A stretch of 64,000 bases of DNA from an uncultured Chthonomonadaceae bacterium (GTDB lineage: Bacteria; Armatimonadota; Chthonomonadetes; Chthonomonadales; Chthonomonadaceae). The stretch spans positions 1,536,001 to 1,600,000 of the forward strand of contig CAWFQB010000001.1 in assembly GCA_963817895.1 (NCBI GenBank). The letters run 5' to 3'. Numbering within the stretch: position 1 is the stretch's first letter; each line of letters opens with the position of its first letter. Made by a program: the position numbers and the translations under genes. Shown one piece after another: positions 4,137 through 11,480 of this stretch. The notes under the pieces were generated by a model, which saw only the letters and a list, made by a program, of their open reading frames with translations, was not told the DNA's origin and searched no databases.

Positions 4137-5484
4137 GTGATATTGACGGGAAAACAACAAAAATTAGGACGAAATCGCGTAGGGCGCGTGTGGCTGCTGA
4201 CAATGGTATTTTGCCTGCCGATTTTGCTGATGGGTGGATTGCTGCTGGCGCAGGATTACGCGGAAGACCCTGTCAACTACCTGAAAACCTCGCCCTCGGA
4301 TGCGGTTGCCGATTTGCAGCAAAAGCTGGACAGCGGGCAGGCGCAGTTGAAGTTCGACAGCAAGCGCGGGTATCTGCTTGCCGTACTACAGGCGCTGCAT
4401 GTTCCCGTCTCATCGCAAATGCTGGTGTTTTCCAAAACCAGTTTTCAGCGCGACCTGATTACGCCGCAAACTCCCCGCGCCGTGTATTTCAATGACCGCG
4501 TGTATGTGGGGTGGGTGCAGGAGGGCAATTATGTCGAAGTGGCCTCAGCAGACCCGCAATTGGGCGCGGTGTTCTATATTCTCAAGCAGGAGCCGACCGA
4601 CAAGCCGAAGTTTATGCGGCAAACGTATGAGTGCCTGCAATGCCACGACTCCAATCTGGCGGGGAGTGTGCCGGGGCATCTGATGCGTTCCGTGTACCCC
4701 GACCGGACGGGCAACCCGATCTTTTCCGCAGGCAGTTACGTCACTTCGGATCAGAGTCCGCTTGGCGAGCGGTGGGGCGGCTGGTACGTGACGGGGCGGC
4801 ACGGCGGGCAGTTCCACATGGGCAACATGGTGGCGCAATCCGAAACCGCGCCGCAGCAGACAGATTGGGCAAAGGGCGGCAACCTGACGGACTTGAGCAA
4901 AGTCATTAATGTGACGCCATATCTGAGCAAACATAGTGACATCGTGGCCCTGATGGTGGCCGAGCATCAGACGCAACTGCAAAACCGCATCACGCGGGCC
5001 AATTACGGGACGCGGCAGGCGCTGCAATACGCGAAATTGCTCAACAAAGATTCTGGGACGCCCCGAAGAGTTTCTATCCGACAGCGTGAAAAGCCGGATT
5101 AAAAGCGTGTGCGAACCGTTGGTAAAAGCCATGCTGTTTTCGGGCGAAACCAGACTTACGGCTCCCATTACAGGCACGTCGGCTTATGCCGCGCAGTTCG
5201 CGAGTTACGGCCCGTTCGACCGGCAGAAACGCAGCCTGCGCGAATTCGATCTGCAAACGCGCCTGTTCCGCTACCCGCTGAGTTATCAAATCTATTCCGC
5301 CACGTTCGACGGCCTGCCCGACATGGCAAAACAGTACGTCTACGGGCGCTTTGAGGAGATTTTCACCGGCAAGGACAGGAGCGCGGATTGGGCGCATCTA
5401 TCGGATGCCGACCGCCGCGCCCTTCTGGAAATCCTCCGCGACACCAAGCCGGAGTTTGCCACCTGGGAAGGGGGGAAGCGGTAA
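4137..5484 (+). CDS. Secreted protein with a CxxCH heme-c motif, frameshifted near 5060-5090
   Basis: N-terminal hydrophobic signal and CLQCH; the second part (ORF 5086-5484, SLREFDLQTRLFRYPLSY) continues the protein in another frame. Confidence 0.65.
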
Positions 5485-5710: not shown

Positions 5711-5784
5711 GGGGGTGTAGCTCAGTTGGTTAGAGCGCCAGCCTGTCACGCTGGAGGTCGCGGGTTCGAGCCCCGTCATCCTCG
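5711..5784 (+). tRNA. tRNA-Asp(GTC)
   Basis: Acceptor GGGGGTG/CATCCTC, anticodon arm CCAGC-CTGTCAC-GCTGG, T-loop GGTTCGAGCCC. Confidence 0.97.
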
Positions 5785-7077: not shown

Positions 7078-7341
7078 AACTGCCACGTTTGCGCCCTGTG
7101 CCTCACTTTTTCTGCAAAATCCCGCATTTCTCCAATGGAGAATACTTCTTGTAGACGCCTTTGCGTTCACATAAGAGGACGTACAAACATGCGGCTTGCG
7201 GCTTTGGCGGGGCAGTGGCTAGAATGGAGAGGGCTATAACGCGCAACGTGAACGGTGACAGCGCGACAACAGGCCCTTACCCGGTGACAGCACAACGCTT
7301 CAACAGCGAACAGTTCAGATTGAGGACGGCGAAAGCGGCAG

Positions 7342-7406
7342 TCAGTTGGTTAGAGCGCCAGCCTGTCACGCTGGAGGTCGCGGGTTCGAGCCCCGTCATC
7401 CTCGTT
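7342..7406 (+). repeat. Exact 65-bp direct repeat of tRNA-Asp lacking its first 11 nt; att-like site
   Basis: Identical to 5722-5786 (TCAGTTGGTTAGAGCG...CATCCTCGTT), 1620 bp downstream. Confidence 0.92.
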
Positions 7407-8445: not shown

Positions 8446-8496
8446 AACGCGTAAAGGGCGCGGGCAGAAATTTTCTGCCCGCGCCCTTTACGCGTT
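8446..8496. terminator. Perfect 25-bp-arm palindrome downstream of the Ro60 gene
   Basis: AACGCGTAAAGGGCGCGGGCAGAAA-T-TTTCTGCCCGCGCCCTTTACGCGTT; terminator role is inferred from position. Confidence 0.65.
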
Positions 8497-8570: not shown

Positions 8571-10202
8571 TCAGATACGCCCTGCCGCAAACTCGGAAAT
8601 AACCGCAGGCGCGCTCGTATCGAACCCTACCAGATCGAGCATATTGGGGTTGTTGGGATCGGCGATGCTGAATTCATTGGACACCATGCCGACGACTATC
8701 AGCCGGGCGGCTATGCCCATCTTGTCCTGATACTGCTTTAGCGCCTGCACGGGGTGAACCTTTCCCGCGTAGGTTTCGCTATCAGTAAAGATAACGAAAG
8801 CGTCCGCCTCCACCTTGTTTTGCATGGCCCAGACCATAGGCAGGGAGCAGTCGGTTCGGTCAAACGGCATTCCGTTCATACGGGCGGTCACAGCATCCAG
8901 ACACTCGTTCCTGCCGACTGCGAACGGAACGAACTTGTTGGAAAACGCCATTGTCGCCACGTTGTTTTCCACCCGGTTCGTTGCCATTGCCATCGCCGCC
9001 GTTCCGATGCGCGGCGTGATACCCGGCATTCCCGCAATCAGGCCCCCGGCCATCGAACCGGACACGTCCAGCCCCAACACGAAGCGCATACCGGTTGGCG
9101 CAATCGCGTCGAACGCCATGTAGAAGGCGGCATCCAGCGCCTCCACCACTTTGGGTATCACCGGCCATTCCCCGTTGCCCCGGATGCCGCGCCCACTGCT
9201 GTACGTGTTCAGAGCCACCAGCAGCGACAGGGGGTGAACTCGCCCGCGCCGTATCTGTTCCCCGTCCGTCAGCCGAGCGATAACCGCGTTCAGGTTGCTG
9301 TACTGGCCTTCGGCAATCGCGCCGGTCTTGCTCAGGTTGCTCAGGTTGCGCAGCAGCCACGTCATGCCCGCCGAGGGAATCAGCGCCTCATAGACCGCCT
9401 TGCTCCGCTTCTCCGACGGCACACACTCCATCGGCAGGCGATAGGTCTGGATCAGGTGAACCAGTTCCTTCTCGTCGGCTGTTTTGGCGCGTTCTGCCGC
9501 CCATATGATTTGCAGCGCCTCATTTTCATGTGGAACGATCCCGACACCCGGCCAACTGTCCACCATGTAAGAAAAGATGGCGTTGCGCGTGTCACTGGCT
9601 GCGGCAATGCCCTGATTACGCGCCTGAACGTGCGCCAGTCGCAGCATGTCGGCGTGCGCCCACCCTCGCGCTGCCGATACTTCACCGCCTGAAGCGCCAG
9701 CACGGCCTCAGTCTTCTCCATATACCAGTGGGAAATCGCCTTGCGCAGCCCCTTGCCCCATCCGCGCAGGGCGTTGACGTAGCGGGCGTACTCGAACAGG
9801 TGCGTTCCCGTCCGCGCTACGCGAGGCAGGGCGGCAAACGCCGACTGGCGCGTCCGGTCATCGCCGGTTGCCGAACACAGCGCGAGCGCGAACAGGGCAG
9901 GCGAGTTCTTTGCGGCGCGGCCCGTATCGGAAATCTCCACAATCATGGCAACGGCGCGCGCTCCGTCTTCCGCAATCGCGGCAAGAGAAGCCGCCATGTT
10001 GTCCCGCGTGAGTTTCTGTTCACTGAGCATAGTACGAGCCGCCCTCCGAGCCGAGAATCAGAAAGCGATGCAGGCGGGTGAAGTTGTCTACCGCATAGAC
10101 GTAGCCGCCCGCGTCGTTCTTCACCTGGTTTGCGCCGGGAATGGGATCGGTCTGCGGGGTTGCCTTCGGGTTCAGGATGTTGTTCAGATACGCGGTAGAC
10201 AT
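8571..10202 (-). CDS. rsr: Ro60/Rsr TROVE-domain RNA-binding protein, two apparent frameshifts (~10025, ~9660)
   Basis: Three overlapping ORFs give RFLILGSEGGSYY, RTGTHLFEY, GWGKGLRKAISHWY, KYRQR, the vWA MIDAS LDVSGSM, TDCSLPM, FTDSET and GFD. Confidence 0.92.
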
Positions 10203-10226
10203 GAGTTTGCTTTCAGATTGACAGGT

Positions 10227-10318
10227 CAGTCGAGACAAGTGGCGCGTTGCGTTTTTTCTTAAAGGCTGGTATTCACAGCGCGTTAAGCCATGAGAACACA
10301 ATGCTGCGGCCCCGACTG
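10227..10318 (-). ncRNA. Y-RNA-like RNA 1, about 92 nt, nearest to Ro60
   Basis: 5' CAGUCGGGGC-C pairs with 3' CACUU-GUCUCGACUG; upper stem GCAUUGUGUU/AACGCAACGC; distal GCUG-UGAAUAC-CAGC hairpin. Confidence 0.75.
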
Positions 10319-10325
10319 CAAAAAT

Positions 10326-10395
10326 GGGCGGAGACAAGTTGATTGAAGCGCGGCTTTCTTTTTGGATGAGAACACACTTCATTCGGCCCCCGCCC
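10326..10395 (-). ncRNA. Y-RNA-like RNA 2, about 70 nt
   Basis: GGGCGGGGGC-C-GA pairs with AAC-UU-GUCUCCGCCC; upper stem UGAAGUGUG/CGCGCUUCA. Confidence 0.8.
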
Positions 10396-10404
10396 GTACA
10401 GAGT

Positions 10405-10479
10405 TTCGCAGACAAGTGAAATGTCGGGCGAGCATTTTATCTTAATAGGATAACGCTCTGTTGACGTTCGGCCCGCGAA
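10405..10479 (-). ncRNA. Y-RNA-like RNA 3, about 75 nt
   Basis: UUCGCGGGC-C-GAA...GUUAUC...CAC-UU-GUCUGCGAA; upper stems GAGCG/UGCUC and UUAUC/GAUAA. Confidence 0.8.
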
Positions 10480-10687
10480 CACAGCGGAATGGTGATAGAT
10501 TGGCGGTCTGTCTGTTCCAATTTCATTTGCACAGAACTGAAGTTGTCGCCACTTGCATAAGAGACAGTCTGCCGCCGCGAAAAGTTGCGCCATCAGTTCG
10601 CGCTTATACACTGTTATCCGTATTGTTGCGGTTTCTGCTCCGTAGGGTTGCGGGAGTTGGGCTGATGAGAGGCAAAAAGGCTGCGGT

Positions 10688-10703
10688 TGGCACGGTTCTT
10701 GCA
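10688..10703 (+). promoter_or_regulatory. Sigma54 promoter of PEP-CTERM gene 3
   Basis: TGGCACGGTTCTTGCA, consensus -24/-12. Confidence 0.85.
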
Positions 10704-10769
10704 ACTAACGCACTGTACCGCCGGCTATTGGCGGGATAAAGTTTCTCATCTGAAAGGTTTTCTCTTTAC

Positions 10770-11480
10770 ATGAACGTTCAAACTCTCAAGACGCTATCCG
10801 TCACATCCATCGCTGTTCTGATGATGGCCGGTGGAGCGCGCATTAGTCAGGCGCAGTCCAACTTTATTGACACTAATATCGACCTCAACTACGTCAGCAC
10901 CGCTTCCGGTTCGCCCACCGTAATATCCTCCGGCAACAGCATCAATGTGTCTTATACGTCCGGCGATTTTTACAATATTAACGGCGCGGGCGCGTCCGAT
11001 GCCGACACGCGGGATGGTTCGGGCGCGGGCGCGTTTATTCGCCTGACCCCTGCCGGCAACGGGCTGCGGGAAACCAGTACCCAGAACGCCGGGATGAACA
11101 CGTCCCTGATCAACTACCGCTTCGACATTACCATTCAGGATGTTTCCAGCGGTATCAGCCAGTTGGTAAGCCTGCCGTTCCAGTTCAACAATGCGTTCAA
11201 AGAGGGCAGCAACGGCGGCGACGGCGTCCCGGCGTTCACGCTTCCCAACCCCACGCAGATCGGCAACAACCTCTACACGTTCTCCGGCTTCGCGTTCACG
11301 CCCGCCAGCGCGCCGCGAACAACGGGTGGCACATCGGCAACAGATGGCTCGTTCGGTTTGCGCGTACAGGCCACGCCGGTTGCGGTTCCCGAACCCGGCG
11401 CGGTTGCCACGCTCGTCGGCATGGGCATGACCGGCGCGGGTTTCCTGCGCCGCCGCAAGTCTGCGCTAAAAACCGCCTGA
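10770..11480 (+). CDS. PEP-CTERM sorting-domain surface protein 3
   Basis: Signal peptide ending AQ; C-terminus VPEPGAVATLVGMGMTGAGFLRRRK. Confidence 0.92.
   Translation: MNVQTLKTLSVTSIAVLMMAGGARISQAQSNFIDTNIDLNYVSTASGSPTVISSGNSINVSYTSGDFYNINGAGASDADTRDGSGAGAFIRLTPAGNGLRETSTQNAGMNTSLINYRFDITIQDVSSGISQLVSLPFQFNNAFKEGSNGGDGVPAFTLPNPTQIGNNLYTFSGFAFTPASAPRTTGGTSATDGSFGLRVQATPVAVPEPGAVATLVGMGMTGAGFLRRRKSALKTA

Follow-up and report, generated by a model that had tools for sequence, protein, structure and literature searches.

The 64-kb stretch of DNA analysed here (the window) carries, directly upstream of its rsr (Ro60/TROVE) gene, three tandem units which are probably genes for hairpin-class bacterial Y RNAs. 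We predict that they are made as one transcript with rsr and cut apart, that they bind Rsr by way of a bulged helix and gate its RNA-binding ring, and that they are not tRNA mimics; this is the reading which we consider likely. The units very likely belong to the hairpin class represented by Yrn2 and YrlB, and not to YrlA, and that class is already known. Their structure, position and conservation are established at the level of sequence and comparison, and their expression, processing and binding by Rsr are proposed by analogy with D. radiodurans, Salmonella and M. smegmatis (PMC4201824).

Units, motifs and folds

The array shares its strand with a PF05731/PF25045 gene and lies between 24 and 277 nt ahead of its start. 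An earlier note on this DNA, made from the letters, had described three tandem units of about 92, 70 and 75 nt, spaced 7-9 nt apart, with unit 1 ending about 25 nt before the start codon. All of this is borne out on the minus strand, where the spacers are 9 nt (units 3/2) and 7 nt (units 2/1) and unit 1 ends 24 nt from the rsr ATG (10202). The units are listed below with their scores for R1, a covariance model of relatives' hairpins that is described in the next section.

10405-10479, minus strand: unit 3 (transcribed first), 75-nt hairpin Y RNA candidate with the exact UUAUC loop motif; fold z -2.62; R1 27.1 bits, E ~0.002
10326-10395, minus strand: unit 2, 70-nt minimal hairpin Y RNA candidate with loop variant UUCUC; fold z -3.95; R1 50.2 bits, E ~5e-8
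10227-10318, minus strand: unit 1, 92-nt hairpin Y RNA candidate with loop variant UUCUC; fold z -2.36; R1 34.3 bits, E ~7e-5

The motifs GGGCCG(A/C)A, GUU(A/C)UC and ACUUGUCU are common to all three units, as had been claimed, and so are the terminal helices. In every unit the folded terminal helix leads, past a bulged C and a short step, to a bulge of 3-5 nt and then to an upper stem. The 5' motif GNCGAAN0-1G is exact in units 2 and 3; in unit 1, which has an added distal hairpin without a T-loop, CGCA replaces CGAA, a variant often seen among relatives. At its 5' end the loop reads UUAUC in one of the three units and UUCUC in two; the upper stem of units 1 and 2 has GUG opposite CGC, and that of unit 3 lacks GUG. 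None of the window units has a T arm, a D arm, an acceptor-like stem or an oligo-U tail. Units 2 and 3 had been called metazoan-like and free of a tRNA-like domain, which is right and, by the lack of T and D arms, holds for unit 1 as well. An unguided alignment of the three units put unit 1 in the wrong register and was set aside.

Folding each unit had been proposed as a check; the z-scores given above, against shuffles, correspond to 7 of 200 shuffles folding as well as unit 1, none of 200 for unit 2 and 2 of 200 for unit 3. Two control stretches upstream of the array folded no better than shuffles (z +0.10 and +0.84), and the same was true of 10490-10620, which was rejected as a fourth unit. 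None of the units has an Rfam match at the gathering score. No Y-RNA family was found in the window, nor in 10150-10780 with the threshold relaxed to E<=10 (RF02553, RF01656 and RF00019 included), in agreement with the description of the units as unannotated. Weak Rfam matches to SNORD110 and bxd_2 are unrelated and were judged to be chance.

That two of the three z-scores are merely moderate, and that Rfam gives no match, would suit an alternative in which the units have nothing to do with Ro60 and are hairpins arisen by chance, terminators or REP-like repeats. Against it, the three-part motif has three matches in the 7,479,055 bases of the whole genome (both strands), all of them in the array; a looser pattern has 14 matches in the genome, and at least four of five flanking pairs are found in the array's three only. 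Together with the matches to a model from which the window was held out, the covariation in relatives and the linkage to rsr in unrelated contigs, which follow, the uniqueness of the motif has already largely refuted the chance reading, to which we give almost no credence.

Relatives, covariance model and linkage to rsr

A search with PF25045 matched 96 of 401 genomes in a sample of the phylum, 90 of them over the cut-off, and the 80 best non-self places were fetched. By a motif-plus-stem script, 138 hairpin-order units were found in 55 of the 80 loci and 61 tRNA-shaped units in 42, with 119 core matches unassigned. The loop of the 138 units, for which the pattern required one of three forms, is UUAUC in 109, UUACC in 20 and UUCUC in 9. 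The family core can bear a plain loop, a T arm, a YrlA domain or an entire tRNA frame, a variety that the interchangeable effector modules suggested earlier, as a putative function, would fit. The tRNA-shaped Y RNAs have normal acceptor ends and a permuted Ro60 helix in place of the anticodon arm (e.g. L038:2826-2948:+, L045:3214-3335:- and L059:3701-3809:-).

R1 was built from 44 hairpins of relatives, with the window sequence left out; 46 short plain hairpins were taken, of which 44 were aligned and two atypical rows dropped. Run on the 64-kb window, R1 ranks the array units first to third (50.2, 34.3 and 27.1 bits), the next match scoring 18.1 bits, and units 1 and 3 score below most relatives' units. 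An R1 match at 8457-8485 is a palindrome and not a Y unit. In the 44-row alignment the share of cells that pair is 89.5%; shuffles reach 71.4% and slid registers 37-53%. Outer stem and motifs served to pick the training set. The upper stem played no part in that choice, and two-sided changes occur there in 8 of 9 pairs across these 44 units, whose source relatives are not independent.

A metagenome scan was made by motif alone, blind to rsr; at least 80 loci with flanks were obtained, 75 of them were re-matched, and these were then checked for rsr. Among the matches listed, 28 of the 34 whose closing stem has 4 bp or more are accompanied by an rsr gene on the same strand, as against 2 of the 41 without the stem; the matches are not independent, since 11 Rsr proteins from these loci form one clade in a tree. 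In viral contigs rsr was present at 12 of 80 loci and the stem criterion did not separate them (2 of 11 with the stem, 10 of 69 without). The breadth beyond the phylum rests on the metagenome contigs and on seven named plasmid or phage records, five of which (from Proteobacteria, Actinobacteria and phages) have R1 hairpins upstream of rsr, with scores of 44.7 bits in phage Yaboi, 26.8 in Bosea, 21.0 in phage Sparky, 20.0 in Nonomuraea, and 17.5 and 15.9 in Rhizobium; R1 had no match upstream of rsr in the other two, Picosynechococcus and phage Forza. The Y RNA identity first proposed from the letters is supported by the held-out R1 ranking, by covariation in relatives and by the rsr-blind linkage in metagenomes.

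Several loci of relatives have arrangements of their own. In 5 of 8 same-family loci hairpin units are located on the downstream side of rsr, and so they are in L220, which has a three-unit tandem array like that of the window (L220:2909-3157:-); in L034, L036, L038, L044 and L077 hairpin units lie about 1.65-1.75 kb past the rsr start. In L037 and L076 arrays of tRNA genes directly precede the Y RNA-rsr locus. A scan of named genomes yielded a single locus, from an Abditibacteriaceae MAG (52% identity), by which the phylum of the window would likely be Armatimonadota.

Comparison with known Y RNAs

The papers compared in this section are represented by excerpts, to which the statements about them refer. 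Chen et al. 2014 (PMC4201824) describe the hairpins Yrn2 and YrlB, made from polycistronic precursors, with Rsr-dependent stability and a role in gating. The hairpin class was found mainly by immunoprecipitation, in three species. Like Yrn2 of D. radiodurans and YrlB of S. Typhimurium and M. smegmatis, the window units have a long hairpin in which the 5' end pairs with the 3' end, a predicted Ro60-binding helix and a small loop, and they share the siting beside rsr on the same strand and the tandem, probably polycistronic arrangement. The window differs in having three units in a row and no tRNA-like member that we could find. The interest of the array had been over-rated in the earlier note: for D. 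radiodurans, hairpin Y RNAs of metazoan-like form, in tandem and polycistronic, had already been published from the region upstream of rsr.

With YrlA (RF02553; Chen 2014; Wang et al. 2018, 10.1101/312249) the window shares the GNCGAA(N)G-type 5' motif (units 2 and 3), a YUAY-like start of the loop and the place adjoining rsr; its units, however, lack the T arm, the D arm and the acceptor-like stem, and stay below the RF02553 gathering score of 69 bits. The excerpts of PMC4201824 give a conserved YUAY in YrlA, and the supplementary alignment has a UUAUC pentamer in actinobacterial YrlA; in these excerpts YUAY is not equated with the UUAUC of animals. One YrlA is listed there for an Armatimonadetes species.

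The animal families RF01656 (nematode stem-bulge RNAs) and RF00019 (vertebrate Y RNAs) have the same order of elements as the window units: a lower stem with a bulged C, an upper stem, a loop that begins with UUAUC and, in the 3' strand, ACUUG-C. The window units differ in scoring below both families, in having UUCUC in two of three loops, in GUG/CGC rather than GUG/CAC, and in the missing oligo-U tail, and the A/GUG-CAC/U upper-stem motif of animal Y RNAs is absent from them; in relatives U-A and G-C dominate at the two corresponding pairs (28 and 37 of 44). Six related bacterial units pass the RF01656 cut-off (38 bits), which the window's three do not.

RF01656-passing hairpins: L045:3614-3683:-, L045:4447-4518:-, L043:1094-1163:+, L208:928-999:+, L150:2281-2354:+, L183:2536-2606:+

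Three of them were picked solely by their place beside rsr (42.8, 40.7 and 39.4 bits; 20 loci scanned), and three further ones were motif-selected from the metagenome (16 loci scanned). The related bacterial units align with the RF01656 consensus at the bulged helix, the upper stem, UUAUC and the 3' strand; their best RF00019 score was 26.4, against a cut-off of 38. Excerpts of PMC4450293 and PMC4726728 define the animal motifs by DNA-replication assays, a role for which the window units have no support, and the latter paper states that bacterial Y RNAs are not homologous to the vertebrate clades. A literature search, whose scope did not take in two reviews, found no work tying UUAUC to bacterial Y RNAs.

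In Thermus phage phiLo (PMC12135203) two Y-like RNAs, Yrl1 and Yrl2, were found by motif and folding upstream of a Ro60 gene, and their binding was shown by EMSA. The phage protein, phiRo60, is a distant homolog (E 6e-4 to a relative's Rsr), and UUAUC is not mentioned in the passages of that paper compared here.

The rsr gene

8571-10202, minus strand: rsr (Ro60/TROVE), with a three-frame reading in the assembly; PF05731 in two pieces, PF25045 209 bits

The earlier note had overlooked two frameshifts in rsr, near 10025 and 9662, which leave it in three reading-frame pieces. The gene has TROVE and Ro60 vWA domains and is the sole match in the genome, and in a tree its protein groups with same-family Rsr proteins. 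In Ro60, residues K170, R174 and H187 have a role in RNA binding, and the residues aligned to these of the Xenopus protein are present in the gene pieces. The neighbours of rsr encode an M42 peptidase, a methyltransferase, a glycosyltransferase and a flippase, and no RtcB-type repair gene is found among them.

Frame changes are frequent in this assembly. Among 107 genes with orthologs in two relatives, 22 have a frame change and 4 have two changes, which is 0.22 breaks per kb; when the DNA was compared with that of congeners, 55 isolated single-base indels turned up over 92 kb, of which some may be real differences. At the error rates measured, a hand Poisson estimate puts the chance of two breaks in 1.6 kb at 5-26%. 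Single-base indels recur elsewhere (e.g. window 4137-5484), with about one gene in five having a frame change, so that the apparent pseudogenes of this genome need caution. The rsr frameshifts are likely assembly errors, although this is unproven.

A related contig in DNA run X1 is colinear with the window over all three units and the promoter region and has no extra unit (130 letters against 131); no unit therefore seems to have been lost from the assembly. It differs from unit 1 by many indels, and five substitutions in a partial list, placed by hand in the stems, keep the pairing. The X1 run comes from a diverged relative and so cannot settle the frameshifts.

An alternative is that the locus is decaying, with rsr a true pseudogene and the three units relics of once-functional Y RNAs. 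The two frameshifts would be expected on this account, and several absences go with them: rsr and model matches were found in neither of two same-genus genomes (91% and 97% complete), no GGAG ribosome-binding site precedes the rsr ATG, and the tRNA-shaped unit of the nearest relatives is missing in the window. The lower R1 scores of units 1 and 3 point the same way. The indels, however, are common throughout the assembly, the C-terminal domain at 209 bits is inside the range of intact relatives, the helices and motifs are kept in all three units, and the same array is kept in the diverged X1 contig. We judge decay to be unlikely, and retain the reading of the units as genes for hairpin Y RNAs.

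Two further features lie near rsr. Just past its stop a near-perfect 51-nt palindrome (8446-8496), preceded by a lone GGGCCG at about 8545, is possibly a terminator, a repeat element or a remnant of a downstream unit. At 7340-7396 there is a truncated copy of tRNA-Asp (5711-5784), between genes whose C-termini we take to be PEP-CTERM-like, which is possibly an integration scar.

Transcription and proposed mechanism

10563-10589, minus strand: promoter-like motif (C/U)GCAAC-N16-CTGTC, inferred; the same motif and spacing in same-family loci

This motif, with its 16-nt spacing, stands ahead of the array in all eight same-family rsr loci fetched, and among 70 loci with at least 1 kb upstream it occurs in 12 in sense and in 4 in antisense. 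It likely serves an alternative sigma factor, which we take to be of the ECF type. Genome-wide its enrichment is weak (22 sites have spacer 16, and spacers 10-22 give 7-19), and a regulon is not supported. The motif also occurs at G000:C5:346553-346579 and G000:C14:192094-192120, 31 and 44 nt before ORFs whose N-termini presumably resemble aspartyl- and prolyl-tRNA synthetases, and near tRNA-Ser on contig C7 of the same genome. No sigma-70 promoter was found for the array. From the conserved promoter-like motif upstream, from the minus strand between array and rsr, on which no terminator-like site was found, and from published precedent, we infer that array and rsr are likely co-transcribed.

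Transcription would start just downstream of the motif, and endonucleolytic cuts in the 7-9-nt spacers would free RNAs of about 70-92 nt. Rsr would then bind these hairpin RNAs and stabilise them, and the bound RNA would close or open the Rsr cavity to RNA that is misfolded or damaged; the variable loop may recruit partners. This scheme supposes that the window's lineage has lost the tRNA-shaped member which its nearest relatives retain, and that the frameshifts in rsr are errors of assembly.

The tRNA-like partner

Among 62 loci of relatives with a full upstream region, a loose pattern found a unit followed by a T arm in 57, hairpins only in 3 and neither in 2; a tRNA-shaped unit is retained in each of the three nearest Rsr relatives (L084, L098 and L106). 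Searches for a tRNA-like Y RNA found none in the window units or elsewhere in this genome, which is 81% complete and in which one of the genome searches missed unit 1. The YrlA model RF02553 reached at best 29.6 bits over the genome (cut-off 69), the matches listed for model R2 were all ordinary tRNAs of 71-75 nt (150 of 1626 candidates scored), and patterns for tRNA-shaped units, which recover 46 of 61 known ones, found none. In the excerpts of PMC4201824 each species has at least one tRNA-like RNA, and a hairpin-only locus would be an exception to this published rule, the absence not being proven.

A candidate at G000:C2:314719 (L110:3157-3220:-) has a Y-like 5' half and no closing stem and scores 7.2 bits; it was rejected. 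Its 5' half shares a short stretch with the distal hairpin of unit 1. An array of 16 tRNA genes at G000:C4:227906-230044 has no Y unit in the part scanned.

Regulation of rsr

Among 69 relatives the 5'-strand motif lies within 32 nt of the rsr start in 25, and in 20 of these at 17-27 nt; for control ORFs the count is 69 of 3155. In 19 of the 20 the motif pairs with a 3'-strand motif upstream of it and so closes a hairpin of 5-8 bp, which immediately precedes the ribosome-binding site and has varied outer pairs. This permuted mini Ro60-binding helix looks like a candidate Y-mimic translational operator for Rsr, of which a literature search found no description at rsr. The 20 relatives come from four families, 11 from one.

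Operator-like loci: L035, L036, L037, L038, L039, L044, L050, L054, L055, L057, L059, L065, L068, L069, L074, L076, L077, L079, L082, L092

The order of parts in these hairpins is 3' strand, short loop and GGGCCGA, within the last 45 nt before the rsr start (e.g. L036:2598-2647:-). The hairpin is absent from the window and from its three nearest Rsr relatives, which leaves the autoregulation that had been suggested for the window locus unsupported there; in the phylum Rsr autoregulation is plausible.

These observations bear on a second alternative, by which the units act mainly in cis, as Rsr-binding leader sites that control the translation or stability of rsr, and not as free RNAs. The short distance from unit 1 to the ATG would fit such a role, as would the Y-mimic mini-hairpin that 20 of 69 relatives have where the ribosome-binding site of rsr lies, but that element is missing where the window and its three nearest relatives are concerned. 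Moreover, the same hairpin units lie downstream of rsr in the same-family loci and L220 named above, where a leader role is impossible, and the published hairpin Y RNAs are, in the excerpts of PMC4201824, processed into discrete species. An action mainly in cis is very improbable, and free hairpin Y RNAs bound by Rsr remain the preferred reading.

Significance

A wider reading, which we put forward tentatively as possible rather than probable, is that hairpin bacterial Y RNAs, with their UUAUC, are direct homologs of the stem-bulge RNAs of nematodes and the Y RNAs of animals and represent the form ancestral to both; that the organism of the window runs Ro60 on the hairpin form alone, without a tRNA mimic; and that the Rsr of its relatives represses its own translation through the permuted Y-mimic hairpin. 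If true, the homology contradicts the review statement of non-homology with vertebrate Y RNAs. UUAUC would then predate its role in DNA replication in animals, and a partner for it could be sought in a bacterium.

The hairpin class is known, but no Rfam model detects these members; with R1 the class is detected beside rsr in metagenomes and phages as well as across a phylum. Whether Rsr function needs the tRNA-like domain is a question for which a hairpin-only locus would offer a natural test, and the operator-like hairpin of the relatives makes Rsr autoregulation directly testable.
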